From Clostridia bacterium (lineage in GTDB: Bacteria; Bacillota; Clostridia; UMGS1840), in the NCBI GenBank assembly GCA_045661305.1, contig JAZRFJ010000028.1, forward strand, positions 5,234 through 69,233: a DNA stretch of 64,000 nt, in the 5' to 3' direction. Shown here piece after piece: positions 3,726 through 18,951 of the stretch. The notes beneath the pieces are model-generated. The model ran no database searches. It was not told where the DNA came from and saw only the letters and a program-made list of their open reading frames with translations. Within the stretch, counting starts at the first letter, position 1. Each line of letters opens with the position of its first letter. The position numbers and the translations under genes are program-made.

Positions 3726-4802
3726 GTGGTGGAAAATATAGAAACAAAAAAAAATAATTTTCAAAATTACAAAAAAAATGATAAGAAAAACAAAATTTTT
3801 AAATTTAAGTTTTATTCTCTTGTTTTCAGTATTTACATTATATTTGTAGGATATGCAAATTCGGTAGCTGAAAACGAGGTTTGCGTTTATTCAGATTTAA
3901 GAACTCAAAAACTTATTCCCTCAGGTCAGGCTGTCGCAATGAAATTAAAAACAAATGGAGTTTTGGTTGTAGGAGTAAAAAACGATGCAAATCTTCCCGC
4001 AAAAAAGGCAGGAATAAAAAACGGCGATATCATAACGATGGTAAATGATACAAAAGTTTTAAACACTGCCCATTTTGAAGAAATAATACAAGCTGCAGAT
4101 GAGAATGAAATTACGCTTTTCATAAAAAGAGATGACAAAATTTACAGTACAAATATTATTCCCCAAAAAAATAATGGTTTTTGCGAAATAGGTCTTTGGC
4201 TTCGGGACAGTGCAGCAGGAATAGGAACAGTTTCGTTTTATTCGAGTGACAAAAAGCATTTCTACGCACTGGGACATCCGATAGCTGACAGCGATACTCA
4301 AAAAAATTTTTCCGTAAGAACAGGAAGCTTAGAGCTTGTTGACATTCACGGTGCAAAAAAAGGTAAGAAAAACAATCCTGGGGAGCTTATAGGAACGATG
4401 TCCGATTACGAGATAGGAAGCATTTTAACTAATACAAATTCAGGAATTTACGGTAAAATCAAAGACAAGGGTGTAATACTTGAAAAACCTATCGAGGTAA
4501 TGAAAAAAGAAGAAGTCAAAGAAGGCAAAGCTTATATTTTCACAACTGTGAGCGACTGCGGAGTAGAAAAATTTGAAATAAAAATTTCAAAAATTTTAGA
4601 CAACAATAAAAACAAAGATTTCATTATAAAAATAACTGATAAAAAGCTTATAGAAAAAACAGGCGGAATAGTTCAGGGAATGTCGGGTTCACCGATAATT
4701 CAGAATGGCCGAATTGTGGGAGCTGTGACACATGTTTTTGTGAATGATCCAACAAGAGGTTATGGGATATTTATTGAAAATATGCTAGCGGCGTCATCAT
4801 AA
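3726..4802 (+). CDS. spoIVB: SpoIVB peptidase (S55 sporulation signalling serine protease)
   Basis: 358 aa with N-terminal membrane anchor, PDZ-like segment (GIKNGDIITMVND) and the S55 catalytic block GGIVQGMSGSPIIQNGRIVGAVTHVF. Non-ATG (GTG) start as in the track. Confidence 0.85.
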   Translation: MVENIETKKNNFQNYKKNDKKNKIFKFKFYSLVFSIYIIFVGYANSVAENEVCVYSDLRTQKLIPSGQAVAMKLKTNGVLVVGVKNDANLPAKKAGIKNGDIITMVNDTKVLNTAHFEEIIQAADENEITLFIKRDDKIYSTNIIPQKNNGFCEIGLWLRDSAAGIGTVSFYSSDKKHFYALGHPIADSDTQKNFSVRTGSLELVDIHGAKKGKKNNPGELIGTMSDYEIGSILTNTNSGIYGKIKDKGVILEKPIEVMKKEEVKEGKAYIFTTVSDCGVEKFEIKISKILDNNKNKDFIIKITDKKLIEKTGGIVQGMSGSPIIQNGRIVGAVTHVFVNDPTRGYGIFIENMLAASS

Positions 4803-4839: not shown

Positions 4840-5877
4840 TTAAAATATTTTAGCTTTTTTTAATAATTTCAGAAGTTTGTCGCATATAATATGCACAATC
4901 GTTGCAAGTATCACAGTTGTTATAATTGAGAGGATAATGAAACAGCTTGAATTAATGTTTGGCAATACTTTCTCAACAATCTCGAACACAAAACAATGCA
5001 TCAAATACATTTCAAAGGAAATACTACCTAAGAAATAACTTATTTTATTACCAATTTGAATTTTTTCGTTCAGAAGTAATATAAACGCAAGAATTGCCAC
5101 ACCCAACAAAATCTTTAAAATATAGTCGCCCCAAAAAACAATATGCTTGAAAGACAGATACGATACTCCCAGGACAAGCGACGACAAGCACGCAACAGAA
5201 ACCTTCAATATCCATTTCTGACAAGAGGGTTTTTTGATGCTGTCATAATTAGCAAATAAAACTATTCCCCAAACAAAACCAATAGATTCGGTACACCATG
5301 TAGTTGTCTGAACAATTCCAATAAGTTTTAAAATATAGAGCAGTAAGCTGAAAGCAATGACAACAAAACATACAATCGGTCTGCGAAGCTTCTCTTTCCA
5401 TTTAAAACGGTAACCAATCCAAAACGCAACATAGCACACCAAAAGCCATCTTACCCACACATTGATCTGTAGCGGGCTACCTAAACGGGAACTGCCGGCA
5501 AGCAGAATCATGTCAAGCAAGATAATAACAACATTAGATATCCAGTTAGGAAGAATCAGTTTAGGCAATCTGCTGGTCCAGAACCGTTCGGTTGAATTTA
5601 TTTTTTTGCTTATACCTACAGACAAACCGTAGGCGGAAGTCATAAAGAAGAATGTAACACCAATATACGCAAAACTGCCAATCATATCCTGGATTTTATT
5701 CTGATATGCTGTTGGGATGTGAACAAGAATTACGATTAAGCACCAAAATCCACGCATCGCTTTTGTGTTGTCCATATCAAAAAAATTGTCATTGCCAGAA
5801 GAAATGTACTTTGATCCATGCGTCAGCATAAGTACCAAAAAAACAAGGATACCCATCATAATTACATAGTCAAGCAT
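4840..5877 (-). CDS. acyltransferase family 3 membrane protein (O-acyltransferase-like)
   Basis: 345 aa with about 10 predicted TM helices. The N-terminal FDMDNTKAMRGFWCLIVILVHI block resembles the acyltransferase_3 R/H motif region. RBS AGGGGG. Confidence 0.75.
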   Translation of the reverse strand: MLDYVIMMGILVFLVLMLTHGSKYISSGNDNFFDMDNTKAMRGFWCLIVILVHIPTAYQNKIQDMIGSFAYIGVTFFFMTSAYGLSVGISKKINSTERFWTSRLPKLILPNWISNVVIILLDMILLAGSSRLGSPLQINVWVRWLLVCYVAFWIGYRFKWKEKLRRPIVCFVVIAFSLLLYILKLIGIVQTTTWCTESIGFVWGIVLFANYDSIKKPSCQKWILKVSVACLSSLVLGVSYLSFKHIVFWGDYILKILLGVAILAFILLLNEKIQIGNKISYFLGSISFEMYLMHCFVFEIVEKVLPNINSSCFIILSIITTVILATIVHIICDKLLKLLKKAKIF

Positions 5878-5992
5878 ACTTTACCCCCTAATCATGAAAT
5901 TATATTTATTTAAGTCTACCAAAAAATACTAAAATTTGCAAGTAGTAATACTATTTTATAATCTGTAATGTTGTCCCCTATTGACAACACTC

Positions 5993-6100
5993 GTGTCAGG
6001 TTCACCGATACTTCAAAATGGTAAAATTATTGGTGCAGTAACTCATGTGTTTGTAAATGACCCGACAAGAGGGTATGGGATTTTTATTGAGAATATGCTC
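5993..6100 (+). pseudogene. orphan fragment of a spoIVB 3' end (36 codons, no start, frame runs into unrelated sequence)
   Basis: Aligns codon-for-codon with 4680-4787 of the intact spoIVB ([36 protein letters not shown]). My manual alignment gives 21 mismatches in 108 nt, mostly third positions. Confidence 0.75.
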
Positions 6101-13417: not shown

Positions 13418-14347
13418 TTACTTTTTCTCTTCCGCTTGTTTTACCTGCTCGGTTTTTATCCCTAAAAACTCTGTTCTTATAAGCTCCTTTGTTTTTGGAA
13501 CATCACATATTACATATGAAGCCGTTCCGATGTAAAGCGGATTGTTTGGCATTTCATACATTCTGATACTGTCTTTACTAAGGGTATTTAAAATAGGAAG
13601 TAAATCTGTGAAGTTATAAAGTGCAACATTTGTTTTAAGATTTTTTTCTATTTCACTAAAAAGCTCAGGTGCTTTCGCAATCAAATCAGCATTAAGCTTC
13701 TGCTCATAAAGTGCTTTAACAAAATTCTGCTGTGCCTCAATTCTTCCCAAATCACCCGTAGGATATGACCGAAAACGACAGAACTGCTCCGATTTATCAC
13801 CATCAAGAAGCTGATATCCTGGGTATAGGTCAATATATAGTCCCTGGTCAGGGTCAGTATATTTCATTCTCTGCGGAACATCAATATAAACTCCGCCCAA
13901 AATATCTATGATTTTAGCAAATCCGCCCGGATTAACAACAGCATAATAATTTATAGGAAGCCCCGTAAGCTCTTTTACTTTAGCTAAAACGGCATCTACT
14001 CTTTGTCCCTCTTTTGCAGAAGCATAAACAGCATTTATTTTATTGTTCTGCGACCTTCCGATTGTTACTCTTGTATCTCTTGGAATACTCATTACATTAA
14101 GTACACTTCTTTTTGTATCAACAGAGGCAAGCATAATCGTATCTGTAAGAAGTCCGCCTTTGTCAGTTGCAAGAAGAAGCATATTTACTCTTCCGTCAAC
14201 CACCTTTTCGACCTCTGTAACACTCTGATTTTTTATAACAGGTTCAAGATACATAATTGCAGTATTTACTCCTGCAAAAACTGCAAAAATACAAAGTGCA
14301 ACCGAAATTATTCTTTTTACAATTTTTAAAAAAATTTTAAAATCCAT
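13418..14347 (-). CDS. LytR-CpsA-Psr (LCP) family cell-envelope glycopolymer transferase
   Basis: 309 aa with N-terminal TM anchor. Conserved LLLATDKGGLLTDTIMLASVD...SIPRDT...NKINAVYA and RFRSYPTGDLGRIEAQQNF blocks. Confidence 0.85.
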   Translation of the reverse strand: MDFKIFLKIVKRIISVALCIFAVFAGVNTAIMYLEPVIKNQSVTEVEKVVDGRVNMLLLATDKGGLLTDTIMLASVDTKRSVLNVMSIPRDTRVTIGRSQNNKINAVYASAKEGQRVDAVLAKVKELTGLPINYYAVVNPGGFAKIIDILGGVYIDVPQRMKYTDPDQGLYIDLYPGYQLLDGDKSEQFCRFRSYPTGDLGRIEAQQNFVKALYEQKLNADLIAKAPELFSEIEKNLKTNVALYNFTDLLPILNTLSKDSIRMYEMPNNPLYIGTASYVICDVPKTKELIRTEFLGIKTEQVKQAEEKK

Positions 14348-14372: not shown

Positions 14373-15239
14373 CTAATCTGTCTGTTTTGTAGTTTTTTTA
14401 AACACATCATCTATAAGCTTTTTTGTTTCCTCTTCATTCTGCACCATATAGGACGCTCCGCCTATATACTTAGGTGATGAGGGAAGCTGATAAGTATTGA
14501 GTGTTAAGTTCTTAAATTTATATAATGTTTTTGCAAATTTTGAAATATCCGACAGACCAATATCTGTTTTAAAATCGTCCTTTACCTTTTTATATATAGC
14601 AGGAAGCTTTGCGATTGTTTTTGCATTGAGTTTTTGTTCATAAAGTGCTTTTAAAAACTCTTGCTGTGCATGTATTCTTCCCAAATCAGCATTTGCATAT
14701 CCACTTCTGTACCTCACATACTGCTCTGCCATAGCACCGTCAAGATGTTGCATACCTTTATTAAGATGTATATAAAGTCCCTGGTCGGGGTCCTCATAGT
14801 GCATATTCATAGGAACATCAAAATCGACACCGCCAAGTGCATCTATGACATTTTTAAAACCGTCAGGGTGAATAATCACATAATTATCAATTTTTAAATC
14901 AAGCATGTCCTCCACTTTCTTTTTTACAAGCTGGGGACGCTTTTTCTCATCCTCTCTTTGATAAACGCTGTTTAGTTTTACATGTCTTCCATTATCAAGC
15001 ATAACTCTCGTATCACGCGGTAGCGACATAAGATTTAAGCTCTTGGTATGAGTATTTATGTTTGCAACCATAATGGTATCTGTAAGAAGGCGTCCTTTAT
15101 CCGTTGCCAGAATAAGAACATTTACATTTCCTTTTGTAAAAAAGCCTTTTGATAACATTATTGCCGACATAAGTATAAAAATTACTAAAGCAACACTCAT
15201 TATTTTTCTTAAATATCTGAAAAATAATCTATTATTCAT
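14373..15239 (-). CDS. LCP family protein, tandem paralog
   Basis: 288 aa with the same motif set (ILATDKGRLLTDTIMVANIN...SLPRDT...RYRSGYANADLGRIHAQQEF). Clearly paralogous to 13418-14347. Confidence 0.85.
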   Translation of the reverse strand: MNNRLFFRYLRKIMSVALVIFILMSAIMLSKGFFTKGNVNVLILATDKGRLLTDTIMVANINTHTKSLNLMSLPRDTRVMLDNGRHVKLNSVYQREDEKKRPQLVKKKVEDMLDLKIDNYVIIHPDGFKNVIDALGGVDFDVPMNMHYEDPDQGLYIHLNKGMQHLDGAMAEQYVRYRSGYANADLGRIHAQQEFLKALYEQKLNAKTIAKLPAIYKKVKDDFKTDIGLSDISKFAKTLYKFKNLTLNTYQLPSSPKYIGGASYMVQNEEETKKLIDDVFKKTTKQTD

Positions 15240-15363: not shown

Positions 15364-15414
15364 AGTGTTTCTCCTTTCTTTCGGAAGTTCGTGTCAAGAC
15401 CAGATTAAAAATTA

Positions 15415-15705
15415 TTATTTATCATAATATTTATATCCGCAAAAAGGACATTTTGGATAATCTAAATCGTGCTTCTTAGCACATTTGGGACATTGGATTT
15501 GTGCTATACCATTCTCTTCTTGATGTTCAGTATGATAAAACTCAATTTTACCACATCTCTCACATGAATATATATCAACTTCCATTGCACCAGCAATTAT
15601 ATTCGGCAAATCGCCTAAAATCCAACCAGTTTCTCCTAATTGAATTTTTCTTGAACCACTGTATTTCATTTTATTATTACATCTTAAACATACTAACTCT
15701 TTCAT
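15415..15705 (-). CDS. hypothetical double zinc-ribbon protein
   Basis: 96 aa with CLRC...CERC and CPKC...CPFC pairs. RBS AAAGGAGA. Confidence 0.55.
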   Translation of the reverse strand: MKELVCLRCNNKMKYSGSRKIQLGETGWILGDLPNIIAGAMEVDIYSCERCGKIEFYHTEHQEENGIAQIQCPKCAKKHDLDYPKCPFCGYKYYDK

Positions 15706-15717
15706 ATCCTATCTCCT

Positions 15718-15734
15718 TTCGGAAACTTTCGACA
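15718..15734 (-). promoter_or_regulatory. tandem Spo0A-box-like heptamers (TGTCGAA agt TTCCGAA) in the leader of 15415-15705
   Basis: The minus strand reads TGTCGAA (perfect 0A box), a 3-bp spacer, then TTCCGAA (6/7 to TGNCGAA). This is the same 7+3+7 geometry as the tandem 0A boxes of B. subtilis abrB. Confidence 0.45.
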
Positions 15735-15740
15735 TTCTTT

Positions 15741-15936
15741 ATATAAAGACTGTATAATCCGGATGCCAAGCATTTTTTATGAATTGACAACTCCGTTGTC
15801 ATGAATTGGCTCTGCCATGAATTCTCACTGACGCTCCATGAATTGAATTGCCTTAATGCACGAAGTGCAATTCATGAGCTGTAAGGCTCAATTCATGAAA
15901 CCTTTGATTTCAATTCATGCCGCAGGCAATTCATTG
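15741..15936 (+). repeat. repeat family R1, copy A: promoter-like module plus an array of short hairpins punctuated by CATGAATT (x4) then AATTCATG (x4)
   Basis: Direct-repeat partner at 18241-18438. Octamers start at 15779, 15801, 15817, 15838 and at 15869, 15890, 15912, 15928. Each inter-octamer segment is a small palindrome. The left end carries TGTATAAT on plus and TTGGCA-N17-TTATAT on minus. Confidence 0.85.
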
Positions 15937-15955
15937 CAGTCACAGACCGCATACG

Positions 15956-16123
15956 CTCGTGCCAAGTCAGGCGAACAGTGAATAATAGGACCTACTATTT
16001 TCTGTTCTTGTTTTCCTAAACAAAATCCATCAGAACCCGCAGGAATATTAGATTTTCCTGCCCGATATGTAAATATTTATTATCGGCAAACTAATCTTTT
16101 AAATTGTATGGACTTGACACAAG
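15956..16123. repeat. repeat family R2, copy A: 168-bp unit bounded by 13-bp terminal inverted repeats (MITE-like, switch-like, or structured RNA)
   Basis: CTCGTGCCAAGTC ... GACTTGACACAAG. Both ends are conserved with copy B and the centre has diverged apart from a covarying hairpin at 16039-16061. The unit ends 20 nt from the stop codon of 16143-16679. Confidence 0.8.
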
Positions 16124-16142
16124 TATGTAAACCCACTAAAAA

Positions 16143-16679
16143 CTATAAATTAAGTTTTCCTTTCATCTGTTTTGCATAAGGAATATCATCTATGCATATT
16201 TCAACAAACTGTATTACTGCATTGGCATAATCATTCCAATCTGCATCCTCATCTAAAATGACTTCATCAACGCCTAAATACTGATAACCACTTTTACAAG
16301 GCAACAACAAAGACACATACTTGCCTTGCATATCATCCCAACCAAGATGTATATATCTTTTTCCTTTTATTGCTTTTTTGAAACCTTTAATGCCATAATA
16401 TTTTTCTTCAAAAGTATTTTTACCCGAAAAATCATTGTATGATTCGTGCTGATTCCATTGTTCAATACCATATTTAATTTTTTCAGCTAGTTCTTCTTTG
16501 GTATATGGGCTTTTTAATTCTATAGGGTAATACGCTGTACAAAACCACGGCTCGTTTATTATTGTTCCATCCGCTAATTTTTGAGGTTCGTTGGTTTCAC
16601 TTTGCGGAAAAATAACGATGTCTTTTTCCTCATTCACATAAATATCAATCCATCTGAATTCTTCAAAATTAACTTTCAT
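16143..16679 (-). CDS. hypothetical cytoplasmic protein (acidic, about 178 aa)
   Basis: ORF 16143-16721 in the track. I prefer the start at MKVNFEEF (16679) because of the RBS GAAAGGTG. No family recognised with confidence. Size and acidity are compatible with an immunity-type protein, but that is a guess. Confidence 0.6.
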   Translation of the reverse strand: MKVNFEEFRWIDIYVNEEKDIVIFPQSETNEPQKLADGTIINEPWFCTAYYPIELKSPYTKEELAEKIKYGIEQWNQHESYNDFSGKNTFEEKYYGIKGFKKAIKGKRYIHLGWDDMQGKYVSLLLPCKSGYQYLGVDEVILDEDADWNDYANAVIQFVEICIDDIPYAKQMKGKLNL

Positions 16680-16711
16680 TTTTCCACACCTTTCTACATC
16701 ATTATATACCA

Positions 16712-16728
16712 TTCGACACAATTCTTAC
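16712..16728 (-). promoter_or_regulatory. Spo0A-box-like site (GTAAGAA ttg TGTCGAA) upstream of 16143-16679
   Basis: Perfect TGTCGAA on minus (16718-16712) with a degenerate partner 3 bp upstream. TGGTATATAAT (extended -10-like) follows immediately downstream. Confidence 0.4.
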
Positions 16729-16913
16729 TCGTGTCAAGTCAGGAGAACAGTGAATAATAGGAACTACTATTTTTGCCCTATTTTTTCAACTGTTTTTCTT
16801 TTAACACTTTTCCCTAGAACCCGTGAGAACACTGGATTTTCTCGCATTCGATAGTATATGTAAATATCAAAATCGGCAAACTAATCTTTTAAATTGTATG
16901 GACTTGACACGAG
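16728..16913. repeat. repeat family R2, copy B: 186-bp unit with perfect 13-bp terminal inverted repeats
   Basis: CTCGTGTCAAGTC (16728-16740) and GACTTGACACGAG (16901-16913) are exact reverse complements. Internal hairpin at 16823-16845. The unit ends 20 nt from the stop codon of 16933-17541. Confidence 0.85.
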
Positions 16914-16932
16914 TAACATGAATTTTAATTCT

Positions 16933-17541
16933 TCAATACAAGGATACGGGCTCCCAACCATAATGCTTGATGTAATTAATATCTAATCCGTTATGCTCTG
17001 CGTACATTCGCATGAATTCTATCTCTGCTTGATCGTTATCGTGATGGGTCATAAATTTATCATAAAGACCTGTATAGCCTTTTGTAAACTCTTTGATACT
17101 TTCAGCATAGTGCTCTCCGTCACCAGCTTTCTCAACAGATACAACAACATATCCGTTTTCTGTTTCTTTTAAATGAAAACAAGCAGGCATCTCTCCGCCA
17201 CCACCCTGCACCATTGTATCCCCCTCTAAGCGATAACCACCCGACCAGAAATTACCAAACACCAAATGCTCTCCATCACGGTCCGTCTCTTCTAAAATCA
17301 CAAACGAAGGAATCCAAACATCACCATAGCTTGCGTGACGCTCTGCTTCTTCATTAAACCAGTCACAAATAGCTGCAATAGCAAGGTTATCACCCACATA
17401 TACAAACGAGGGCATCTGTGTACCATCCTTTTGAGTAATATTAAATTGTGGTCCTCCGGAAGCAAGCGGTGGTTTTTCTGTCTTTTGACCGCAGCTGCAC
17501 AAAAGAAAAACAATCAAAAATAACACTAATATTTTTTTCAT
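16933..17541 (-). CDS. hypothetical lipoprotein
   Basis: 202 aa. Signal peptide with lipobox (LFLIVFLLCSC, Cys at the cleavage site). No recognised domain. Confidence 0.7.
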   Translation of the reverse strand: MKKILVLFLIVFLLCSCGQKTEKPPLASGGPQFNITQKDGTQMPSFVYVGDNLAIAAICDWFNEEAERHASYGDVWIPSFVILEETDRDGEHLVFGNFWSGGYRLEGDTMVQGGGGEMPACFHLKETENGYVVVSVEKAGDGEHYAESIKEFTKGYTGLYDKFMTHHDNDQAEIEFMRMYAEHNGLDINYIKHYGWEPVSLY

Positions 17542-17627
17542 AAAAACACTTCCTTTATATTATTTTCATATATCATATCAAAATAAGTGTGCTATAAACC
17601 TGACTTTTCTATCATTATTCAATAAAC

Positions 17628-17644
17628 TTCGACACAATTCGACT
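17628..17644 (-). promoter_or_regulatory. tandem Spo0A-box-like heptamers (AGTCGAA ttg TGTCGAA) upstream of the lipoprotein gene
   Basis: The minus strand reads CTTGACA aaa GTCGAA ttg TGTCGAA. This is a perfect box plus a 6/7 box with a 3-bp spacer, directly downstream of a TTGACA hexamer. Confidence 0.45.
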
Positions 17645-17729
17645 TTTGTCAAGACCGGCTAAAAAAATCACATCTGTATAAAAGCAAGCATATAATATAC
17701 AAAAAAGAAAAATTTTGTAGGTGATTTAT

Positions 17730-18212: not shown

Positions 18213-18240
18213 GCGATTTTATCTTGATATACGCTTTTTG

Positions 18241-18438
18241 ATATAAAGACTGTATAATCCGGATTCCAAGCTTGTTAAATGAATTGACAACTGTCGTTGT
18301 CATGAATTGGCTACGCCATGAATTCTCGCTTTGCTCCATGAATTGAATTGCCTTTTAAATGCACGAAGTGCAATTCATGAGTCGCAAGACTCAATTCATG
18401 AAATCTTTGATTTCAATTTATGCCGAAGGCAATTCATT
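18241..18438 (+). repeat. repeat family R1, copy B
   Basis: Collinear with 15741-15936 and in the same orientation. Differences cluster in hairpin loops or are compensated in stems. Lies 29 nt downstream of the sodC stop and is followed by an 11-bp perfect hairpin at 18438-18462. Confidence 0.85.
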
Positions 18439-18514
18439 GATTTCAAGCTTTGCTTGAAATCATTATATCACCTTTGCAATAAATTGTCAATTTTTTTAAC
18501 AAAATATACACAAT

Positions 18515-18564: not shown

Positions 18565-18813
18565 CTAATTCAATTCTGAAATTTTATCTATACAGCATTT
18601 ACATATTTTTTTGTTTTCAAAGTCGATAAGGTCCTCGTCTGCCCCGCAAAATAAACAAGAAATTTCATATTTTTTTATGATAACTTCTCCGTCATTTCCG
18701 ATAAAAAATTCCAAAACATCTTCCTCCGAAACATCAAGTGCTTTTCTAATCGGCTTTGGTATAAGAAGTCTTCCAAGCGGGTCGATTTGCTTTGTTATTC
18801 CTGTTGCTTTCAT
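18565..18813 (-). CDS. AbrB/MazE/SpoVT-family DNA-binding protein fused to a C-terminal CxxC...CxxC zinc-ribbon
   Basis: The N-terminus MKATGITKQIDPLGRLLIPKPIRKAL is a typical swapped-hairpin AbrB fold signature. C-terminus has CLFCG...CKCC. Start at 18813 with RBS GGAGGAAG. Confidence 0.8.
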   Translation of the reverse strand: MKATGITKQIDPLGRLLIPKPIRKALDVSEEDVLEFFIGNDGEVIIKKYEISCLFCGADEDLIDFENKKICKCCIDKISELN

Positions 18814-18865
18814 ACTTCTTCCTCCATTTTTATACATTTGTTTTCTGATTCTTTATTTTTTCTAC

Positions 18866-18894
18866 ATTATATCATGGAAAAAGAGCGATGTCAA
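18866..18894 (-). promoter_or_regulatory. near-consensus sigma-A promoter of the AbrB-like gene
   Basis: Minus strand TTGACA, 17 nt, TATAAT, with a TGa extended -10. A perfect TGTCGAA heptamer lies further upstream at 18940-18946 (minus sense). Confidence 0.65.
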
Positions 18895-18951
18895 GGATTT
18901 TGGCAAAAAAACCCAAAATATGTAATTTTTGCCACATATTTCGACAAATTT

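Follow-up and report, generated by a model that had tools for sequence, protein, structure and literature searches.

The stretch of DNA analysed here, referred to as the window, is 64,000 nucleotides (nt) long and comes from a Clostridia bacterium (contig JAZRFJ010000028.1 of assembly GCA_045661305.1). It is a piece of the low-GC (about 34%) chromosome of a spore-forming, Clostridium-type bacterium, and it contains two copies of an intergenic repeat, designated R2, each of which lies just past the stop codon of a minus-strand gene and ends in inverted repeats. Genes around the pair include hrcA, grpE, dnaK, two LCP (LytR-CpsA-Psr) genes, recO, plsY and der, with a spoIVB-like gene farther off. 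The two R2 copies form part of a short array of genes, whose units we call cassettes, that differs between strains, and the gene-distal end of R2 contains a 12-nt sequence, CCTGACTTGACA or a variant of it, which we call the core and which also occurs solo. Read in the gene sense, from high coordinates to low, the array is laid out as follows.

17647 to 17667, minus strand: array head, a T-tract (17661 to 17667) and then a solo core, CCGGTCTTGACA (17647 to 17658); homology to other alleles stops here.
17628 to 17634, minus strand: perfect Spo0A-box motif, downstream of the array-head core.
16933 to 17541, minus strand: cassette gene 1, a predicted lipoprotein of 202 residues with no Pfam family.
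16728 to 16913, minus strand: R2 copy B, putative 3' boundary element of the lipoprotein cassette; its gene sense runs from 16913 to 16728.
16901 to 16913, minus strand: inverted core at the gene-proximal end of copy B, 19 nt past the stop codon of the gene at 16933 to 17541.
16823 to 16845, no strand assigned: conserved 7-bp hairpin with a 9-nt loop in copy B, GTGAGAA-N9-TTCTCGC.
16732 to 16743, minus strand: core CCTGACTTGACA at the gene-distal end of copy B, inside the left inverted repeat as first described.
16712 to 16718, minus strand: perfect Spo0A-box motif, TGTCGAA, 13 nt downstream of the copy B core, with TATAAT next at 16702 to 16707.
16143 to 16679, minus strand: cassette gene 2, a protein of 178 residues with no Pfam family.
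16111 to 16123, minus strand: inverted core at the gene-proximal end of copy A, 19 nt past the stop codon of the gene at 16143 to 16679.
15956 to 16123, minus strand: R2 copy A, putative 3' boundary element of the 178-residue cassette; a short variant with a 7-nt deletion and the GCAGGAA/TTCCTGC hairpin haplotype.
16039 to 16061, no strand assigned: the same hairpin in copy A, a second haplotype with two compensated pairs, GCAGGAA-N9-TTCCTGC.
15960 to 15971, minus strand: core variant CCTGACTTGGCA at the end of copy A, with R1A directly after it.
15735 to 15945, minus strand: R1A, a copy of a second repeat family (R1), between the copy A core and the leader of the Zn-ribbon gene.
15415 to 15705, minus strand: cassette gene 3, a Zn-ribbon protein of 96 residues; the sole cassette of allele L119.
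15392 to 15417, minus strand: array tail, a T-tract, TAATAATTTTTAAT, and then a core, CTGGTCTTGACA, past the Zn-ribbon gene, with the end of the inserted block at about 15381.

An earlier note, made from the sequence alone, had described two copies with 13-nt inverted ends, conserved flanks, a diverged middle and a hairpin with a 9-nt loop, and all of these were found again at the positions listed. The inverted ends of copy B are exact over 13 nt, CTCGTGTCAAGTC and GACTTGACACGAG, or over 16 nt with the flanking TTA and TAA. Those of copy A have one mismatch per arm, and both mismatches, C:A on the plus strand, are G.U pairs on the minus strand. The two copies are 93% identical over the left 46 nt, 98% over the right 44 nt and 75% overall, the middle having diverged through substitutions together with insertions and deletions (indels). 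The stop codons of the minus-strand genes lie at 16143 to 16145 and 16933 to 16935. Their equal distance from R2, to which the note had drawn attention, is indeed the same in both copies, measured here as 19 nt, but it is merely one value in a family-wide range of about 0 to 50 nt. The 13-mer, with three or fewer mismatches, is not enriched in the window, where 11 occurrences were found against 8.1 expected; R2 is nevertheless a real repeat, given its conserved blocks of 44 to 46 nt and a 20-mer at its right end that recurs in 96 other genomes. A third R2-like unit, at 5990 to 6071, was rejected as a chance match, since it falls in a pseudogene derived from the 3' end of the spoIVB-like gene. 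The match to the 13-nt repeat at 5990 comes from an intergenic pseudogene fragment at 5994 to 6099, downstream of an acyltransferase gene (4840 to 5877), that duplicates the last 106 nt (4681 to 4786) of the spoIVB-like peptidase gene with 82% identity.

Related loci were taken as 8-kb tiles of draft assemblies from a one-genome-per-species collection. The right-end 20-mer, AAATTGTATGGACTTGACAC, has exact matches there in 113 stretches from 96 assemblies, all of them metagenome-assembled Clostridia (with the labels Congzhengia, Ructibacterium, Oscillospiraceae and similar) from the gut of sheep, goat, deer, buffalo, chicken and human. A profile was built from 40 copies, and its 220 hits were merged into 170 elements, 99 of which are complete; copy B has a profile score of E=2e-64 by nhmmer. 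The basic form of R2, to which the window copies belong, measures about 178 nt between left motif and right end. Two extra hairpins, inserted after GAATAATA, make a form of about 252 nt, and a further multi-hairpin insert, before TATATGTAAATAT, one of about 380 to 400 nt; lengths overall range from 168 to 401 nt. Mean column identity is 84% for 42 basic copies from different species, and the modules of R2 assort independently. Repeated tracts of the CUUUUCC type occur in a pyrimidine-rich part, into which a small GC-rich palindromic module, GGGCGATTCGTGAATCGCCC, is inserted at loci L019, L072 and L090. Numerous copies are cut to the right-hand 30 to 90 nt or carry internal deletions or insertions. 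A small open reading frame (ORF) inside R2 was considered and dropped, as the frames are disrupted by 1-nt and 7-nt indels between copies.

Rfam searches with the window and 18 loci gave zero hits for R2 at the gathering score, and at E<=10 just weak matches far below gathering scores; a glycine riboswitch (RF00504, 57 bits) at 2832 to 2924 of locus L098 is unrelated to R2. No match to R2 was found in phage and plasmid collections, and the 20-mer had none in viral contigs, and a phage or plasmid origin was rejected on these grounds. [quoted passage not shown] R2 is a widespread, apparently undescribed family of structured repeats of uncultured gut Clostridia. The earlier note had allowed that just two copies might exist in a fixed spacer; there are 170 elements, and the window's own site is polymorphic.

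The placement of R2 is strongly polarised. An opposite-strand gene stops 10 to 50 nt from the R2 right end in 109 of the 111 copies with sufficient flank, and by profile coordinates 131 genes end 0 to 50 nt before R2, with a mode at 22 to 26 nt. The layout in the gene sense is thus gene, stop codon, about 20 nt, R2, next gene. Two to five R2 elements occur within 8 kb at 39 loci, spaced by one gene and at times by two or three, and the copies within each locus all lie on one strand. No R2 is inverted relative to its neighbouring genes (0 of 170 elements). The 131 upstream genes hit 51 Pfam families, the majority of genes having none. Commonest are Cu_amine_oxidN1, Bro-N, SLH, DMP19, Peptidase_S9, RhuM and KilA-N; esterases are also among the hits, and GmrSD, YhcG and Schlafen are among the families hit once. 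The 895 ORFs of the R2 loci fall into 681 clusters. To judge from these assignments, the genes next to R2 have the make-up of an accessory pool. Five window proteins were looked up by exact sequence, and no records were returned. No recurrent recombinase or transposase was found among the 895 ORFs of the 113 loci, where a scan for tyrosine-recombinase motifs was also empty, and none among the 40 annotated ORFs of the window. A cluster of large serine recombinase genes (L104, 480 to 2150 and neighbours) lies a few kb from one R2 array; there are three such genes in two loci only, so that this is not a general association.

An all-against-all comparison of the R2 loci shows whole units of gene plus R2 shared between species. 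One such block is common to L038, L069 and L105, which represent different species, at 98.6 to 99.6% identity; others are shared by L010 and L073 (98.4%) and by L027 and L085 (95.6%), and identities of interspecies cassettes overall run from 89 to 99.6%. Shared blocks start at or just before a core and stop just after the core that closes R2. In about 31 homologous gene pairs, the downstream R2 is mostly present in both members, while the upstream element is discordant in at least 10 of them, where one genome has a full R2 and the other a solo core. R2 thus goes with its upstream gene. One cassette lies behind a full R2 in L069 and behind unrelated DNA plus TTATCCTGACTTGACA in L038; the overlap is 16 nt, which is not long enough for ordinary homologous exchange. 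For each of the 25 complete copies that have an array neighbour, some copy from another species is closer than the neighbour. In the window, the closest relative of copy B is the L101 copy from another species, at 93% as against 75% to copy A, and the closest relative of copy A is the L072 copy, at 91%. A homologue of the lipoprotein gene (82.7%) is present in L038, followed by the right end of an R2. No filled and empty pair was found for R2 alone with both flanks conserved; the single pair with conserved flanks has both sites filled.

Alleles of the window's own site were recovered with the neighbouring proteins as anchors, over the interval from sodC to the small ORF ahead of the LCP genes. 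There are five, with flanks 88 to 98% identical to those of the window. The window allele has three cassettes, two R2 and one R1; L119 has one cassette, the Zn-ribbon gene; L114/L118 has a 194-residue gene and an acyltransferase; L140 has a 341-residue gene and an MBOAT gene; and an allele seen in three samples (L136 to L138) is empty, with 25 nt from GTGATTTTTT to the ribosome-binding site. Compared with the empty allele, the window has an extra block of 2,281 nt, 15381 to 17661. Every occupied allele opens with a core right after the T-run; the 8 nt before TTGACA vary, and the sequence after TTGACA is specific to the cassette. Cores outnumber cassettes by one, with four in the window, two in L119 and one in the empty allele, where it is degenerate (9 of 13 positions). 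This last 13-mer, AACTTAATATGAG (within 1883 to 1907 of L136), differs from GACTTGACACGAG at four positions, all by transitions, and may be a decayed attachment site. R2 occurs in the window's species only along with its gene. A metagenome scan with a 20-mer from the start of sodC returned four contigs, all unrelated. Directly downstream of the array, the two LCP genes (13418 to 14347 and 14373 to 15239) are tandem paralogues with stretches of 78 to 81% nucleotide identity.

A second polymorphic site was found in another species. Seven alleles have the order solo core, 230-residue gene, R2, DUF559 gene, and in an eighth a different unit lies upstream of that DUF559 cassette. From the Spo0A box onward the sequences are homologous again, from which it follows that the core and about 12 nt stay with the upstream R2.

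The core closes 84 R2 copies in the related loci, within the gene-distal inverted repeat, and the same 12-mer stands solo 62 times, preceded just by a T-run (consensus ATTTTTT-NN-T); conservation upstream of the solo core ends after about 10 nt. The gene-proximal end of R2 is the core inverted, extended by CGAGTAAAA, and the ends are TYGTGTCAAGTCC (inverse core) and GGACTTGACA. About 40% of junctions have no R2 and consist of T-tract and core alone, with the same cores and leaders. Where an array has both types of junction, the solo core came first 28 times and later three times. Just upstream of the solo cores are ordinary housekeeping genes of many kinds, with no integrase among those upstream of 37 solo cores; WapI-family genes adjoin two solo cores. 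Downstream of the core are three or four classes of conserved leader (CGAACTTTGTCGAATTTTGTGAAAGGAG; AAAGTCGAATTGTGTCGAATGATG...; CGAGTAAGAATTTTGTCGAATGGTG...; AAATCATAGTAAGGATGT...), which are common to unrelated genes and equally frequent behind solo and R2-attached cores. A dif/Xer-like site around TATGTAAAT was dropped as a candidate, since it shares only 8 nt with dif consensus sequences and the second arm is absent. Some cassette leaders, for instance one ahead of a DUF559 gene, have a small GC-rich palindromic module, AAAGCCTYCCCCTKNNGGGGAGG, and then a second hairpin, GGGTTTGCGAAGCAAACTC; such leaders occur downstream of cores at loci L008, L030, L048, L051, L080 and L128 to L135.

The motif TGTCGAA, the canonical 7-bp core of the Spo0A box (PMC3485338), lies 7 to 15 nt downstream of 73 of 148 cores, with about one expected, and these account for more than half of that strand's boxes in the loci. 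Of the seven boxes in the window, four are concentrated in the 3.2 kb around the array, and each of the four lies upstream of a minus-strand gene that belongs to the array or adjoins it. From motif identity, Spo0A is predicted to bind at the junction. At copy B, the box falls between TTGACA and TATAAT, which are separated by 24 nt, an arrangement reminiscent of the over-spaced, Spo0A-activated spoIIG promoter. R2 junctions share the box with Spo0A-regulated promoters, but one leader class has it beside the ribosome-binding site with no room for a -10 element, and the box is a property of the junction rather than of R2 proper. The earlier note had taken TTGACA for a -35-like hexamer that inversion would move. 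Inversion would leave it in place, because the hexamer sits within the repeat itself. A plain -35 role was rejected as well: no -10 element is enriched at 16 to 18 nt from TTGACA, and in one third of the junctions, as in the first leader class, a ribosome-binding site starts too close, only about 25 nt past it. A minus-strand gene for a protein of the AbrB/MazE fold (18565 to 18837) has, within 18866 to 18946, a perfect TTGACA-17-TATAAT promoter with a TG extension and, about 45 nt upstream, a consensus Spo0A box, TTTGTCGAAAT (18940 to 18946).

Several helices of R2 show compensated changes. In the terminal stem, 15 copies have C-G as the third pair and 10 have U-A. Covariation is also seen in the optional hairpins of the 252-nt form, with the versions CCCAACA/TGTTGGG, CGAAATATA/TATATTTCG and CGAAACATA/TATGTTTCG on the one hand and TTATGC/GCATAA, TTACGC/GCGTAA and TTGCGCC/GGCACAA on the other. 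A further helix, GAACAGTGAA with TTCA(A)CTG, is stacked on the terminal stem. For the 7-bp hairpin, the covariation reported from the two window copies comes down to a single compensated event, as the two versions are family-wide haplotypes, GCGAGAA/TTCTCGC in 82 copies and GCAGGAA/TTCCTGC in 17, that differ at two compensated pairs. Only the terminal 10 to 16 nt of R2 pair with each other; the subterminal blocks of 45 nt are mutually unrelated and not complementary, and the predicted fold is branched. Either strand folds better than shuffled sequences do, with z = -4.6 in the gene sense and z = -6.8 on the plus strand. One-sided changes keep wobble pairing on the gene-sense strand more often than on the plus strand, 12 against 4 in the hairpin and 12 against 5 in the terminal stem, which turns against the plus-strand RNA that the earlier note had read from one U.G pair; in the helix beside the terminal stem, the G.U pairs are on the plus strand. 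No terminator-like hairpin with a U-run was found inside R2 or at its right end.

R1, the second repeat family, is about 210 nt long. Its two window copies, 15735 to 15945 and 18235 to 18445, are about 90% identical, and it is also present in L002, L035, L085, L089 and L112. Each copy has four CATGAATTG motifs and then four CAATTCATG motifs, separated by mini-hairpins in which compensated changes are seen (GAGCTGTAAGGCTC against GAGTCGCAAGACTC). R1 lies on the same strand as R2 and abuts an R2 core in three genomes. Its gene-proximal end is formed by a promoter-like module, TTGGCA-N17/18-TATATA, which is found solo at other junctions as well. The copy at 18235 to 18445, into which a perfect minus-strand TTGACA-17-TATAAT promoter (18490 to 18462) reads, is missing from allele L119, where cttgaaatca is followed by actaatatacag, and is shorter in L114. 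R1 had no match in Rfam.

The interpretation that we favor, with confidence that stands about evenly balanced, is that R2 is an attC-like 3'-terminal boundary element of mobile single-gene cassettes, served by a recombinase acting in trans. Each unit consists of a short leader, which has a Spo0A-box motif and a ribosome-binding site, followed by one gene, a gap of about 20 nt and an R2. That R2 opens with the inverted core TYGTGTCAAGTCC, continues through 150 to 380 nt made up of conserved blocks and small hairpins, of which some are optional modules, and closes with the core CCTGACTTGACA. Units stack head to tail in a single direction behind a solo T-tract and core, giving one more core than there are cassettes. 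We infer that a site-specific recombination, acting at the core or next to it, lets cassettes in and out by means of an enzyme whose gene would lie in another part of the genome. The complex partner site, comparable to attC or attP and possibly a folded single strand, would be R2 with its inverted core, and the junction would wire each cassette to Spo0A-dependent expression. Among the candidates raised in the earlier note, a recombinogenic cassette boundary fits junctions that vary between strains and are shared between species; the MITE, the invertible element and the plus-strand RNA fare poorly, as set out below.

A number of observations weigh against such a boundary element. No recombinase or transposase is linked to the arrays, whether in the window ORFs, the 113 loci or the genes upstream of solo cores, and no circular intermediate was seen. 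The crossover is placed variously: the core and about 12 nt stay with the upstream R2 in two comparisons, unlike at array heads, where the core resembles the first bases of the insert. The frequent truncations and internal deletions or insertions among copies would be unusual for a precise recombination site. With its conserved leader classes the whole junction amounts to transferable homology, by way of which genes could be moved through homologous recombination with no dedicated enzyme. Finally, the strain differences at the window's site could stem from replacement of the whole region via the flanking genes.

The strongest rival, unlikely in our estimation though to be taken seriously, holds that R2 is a conserved regulatory or structured intergenic module (a long 3' untranslated region, 5' leader, processing site or insulator of the gene-sense transcript), kept by selection and joined to a Spo0A-controlled promoter region, and that shuffling is a by-product of homologous recombination between the 180-bp repeats and leaders, with no dedicated site or enzyme. 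Such a module would have reason to conserve the sequence itself and not just the structure, as the mean column identity of 42 copies indicates, to fold significantly on both strands, to show wobble preference in the gene sense (12:4 and 12:5), and to include a Spo0A box and ribosome-binding site within the conserved junction; independent assortment of R2 modules is expected from recombination inside the repeat, and the absence of a recombinase and the frequent damage to copies count on the same side. R2 is inherited, however, with the upstream gene and not with the downstream gene that it would regulate, and the roughly 40% of junctions that lack R2 have the same cores and leaders. Some junctions share 12 to 16 nt only (L038 compared with L069), which is too short for RecA-type exchange, and the order with the solo core first (28:3) is not predicted. 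Nor does R2 have a terminator-like hairpin with a U-run or a match in Rfam. A plus-strand small RNA gene, antisense to its neighbours, is a reading that we consider very improbable. The promoter would be TTGTCA/GTGTCA-N16-AATAAT, a promoter-like pair that is conserved at the left end, with the optional hairpin modules beginning right after AATAAT, and the pyrimidine-rich body of the RNA, with the repeated CUUUUCC-type tracts, would pair with ribosome-binding sites; the plus strand is also the one that folds best (z = -6.8). A transcript starting from AATAAT would nevertheless omit the left inverted repeat and the GAACAGTGAA helix, both of which are constrained by pairing. There is no terminator at the right end and no Rfam match, the wobble statistics favor the other strand, and solo right ends and solo cores are common.

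R2 could instead be a non-autonomous MITE or Correia-type element with a transposase elsewhere and a strong preference for sites just after genes, the variability of surrounding genes being coincidental or due to composite mobilisation by two flanking copies. Terminal inverted repeats of 10 to 16 nt with compensated changes, a length of 168 to 400 nt, lack of coding capacity and multiple copies in many genomes all suit this description, as do promoter-like ends, as in Correia elements (PMC10969869), and the truncated and nested variants typical of decaying repeats. We regard it as improbable all the same. A check for target-site duplications found none; on the right the flank reads TAA or TAC no matter what stands on the left, and the flanks of copy B extend the inverted repeat. 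Orientation is fixed (109 of 111), copies are clustered in co-oriented arrays rather than dispersed, and R2 moves with the adjacent, upstream gene, with no R2-only filled and empty pair having conserved flanks. One subterminal region has no relation to the other, the 113 8-kb loci contain no transposase with ends that match, and R2 is absent from plasmid and phage collections. An invertible promoter switch, flipped by a site-specific invertase to toggle the downstream gene, is scarcely credible. R2 resembles known switches in its size of about 170 to 190 bp and its inverted repeats of 13 to 16 nt, which contain TTGACA, but the internal orientation relative to the neighbours is uniform across the 170 elements of the 96 genomes, inversion would not move a TTGACA that lies in the repeat, and there is no invertase gene nearby.

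Integrons are among the closest known systems. R2 follows the logic of integron cassettes but departs from attC sites in the features that define them, namely core sequence, length and hairpin architecture. The likeness includes mostly single genes stacked one way with a repeated element right after each stop codon; an element at the 3' end of each exchangeable cassette, in co-oriented arrays, with inverse-core and core ends and a variable middle; a simple site at the head of the array; and diverse cassettes, mostly of unknown function, shared between hosts. The homogeneous attC repeats of chromosomal integrons are a natural comparison for R2. The core here is CCTGACTTGACA, however, as compared with GTTRRRY (inverse RYYYAAC), which the ends TYGTGTCAAGTCC and GGACTTGACA do not match, and R2 measures 168 to 401 nt as against 57 to 141 nt for attC. 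An attC site folds into a single imperfect hairpin whose R and L boxes pair and which has extrahelical bases, whereas R2 pairs at its ends of 10 to 16 nt and has a branched interior conserved in sequence. Some 40% of the junctions in the R2 system have T-tract and core only, and R2 arrays are short and occur at many different chromosomal sites. A complete integron has an IntI-type gene adjoining the first cassette, and none was found here in the window ORFs, the genes upstream of 37 solo cores or the scan of 895 ORFs. Complete integrons were not found in Firmicutes genomes (PMC4889954), and clusters of attC sites with no neighbouring integrase are termed CALIN (PMC4889954); R2 arrays likewise have no adjacent integrase.

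The closest counterparts in gut bacteria are the rAID-1 arrays of Bacteroidales, which are defined by a XerD-family recombinase gene at the 5' end and have intergenic repeats "reminiscent of integrons" (bioRxiv 10.1101/471110). Both are co-oriented arrays of small accessory genes in gut bacteria, and R2 cassettes include the immunity-type DMP19. R2 arrays differ in having no 5' XerD-family recombinase, by the scans of the loci and of genes upstream of solo cores, in belonging to another phylum with another repeat, and in the broader functions of their cassettes, which include enzymes, transporters and DNA-binding proteins. Correia elements are co-transcribed or have promoter-like ends, and have an end stem that is a possible RNase III target (PMC10969869). 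With these elements and with MITEs, R2 shares the form of a non-coding intergenic unit of 100 to 200 nt with terminal inverted repeats, and differs in array clustering and in linkage to the upstream gene. Correia elements show TA target duplications, both orientations and more than 100 dispersed copies per genome; R2 shows no duplication and a fixed orientation.

Integrons are the textbook device for storing and shuffling single genes. It is possible, although we hold this only tentatively, that gut Clostridia have a gene-capture system of their own, parallel to integrons and built from the 12-nt core CCTGACTTGACA, R2, scattered T-tract sites, a distant recombinase or a recruited host enzyme, and control of the junction by a Spo0A box. 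R2 arrays occur in 96 species of uncultured Clostridia from ruminant, bird and human gut, use a boundary element of another kind and show near-identical cassettes that cross species, all of which points to a major gut phylum having acquired genes by a separate route. The T-tract attachment sites would then be scattered behind ordinary genes, with R2 carrying the core inverted. The 20-mer, the profile and the 12-nt core provide a handle for mining accessory, immunity and defence genes from metagenomes, R2 and R1 are candidate new entries for RNA and repeat databases, and the search for the missing recombinase is now framed. The Spo0A-box junction suggests that gene capture may be linked to the sporulation regulator: if so, every captured gene would sit under a Spo0A-box junction, and the accessory repertoire would be switched on at the transition to stationary phase or sporulation.

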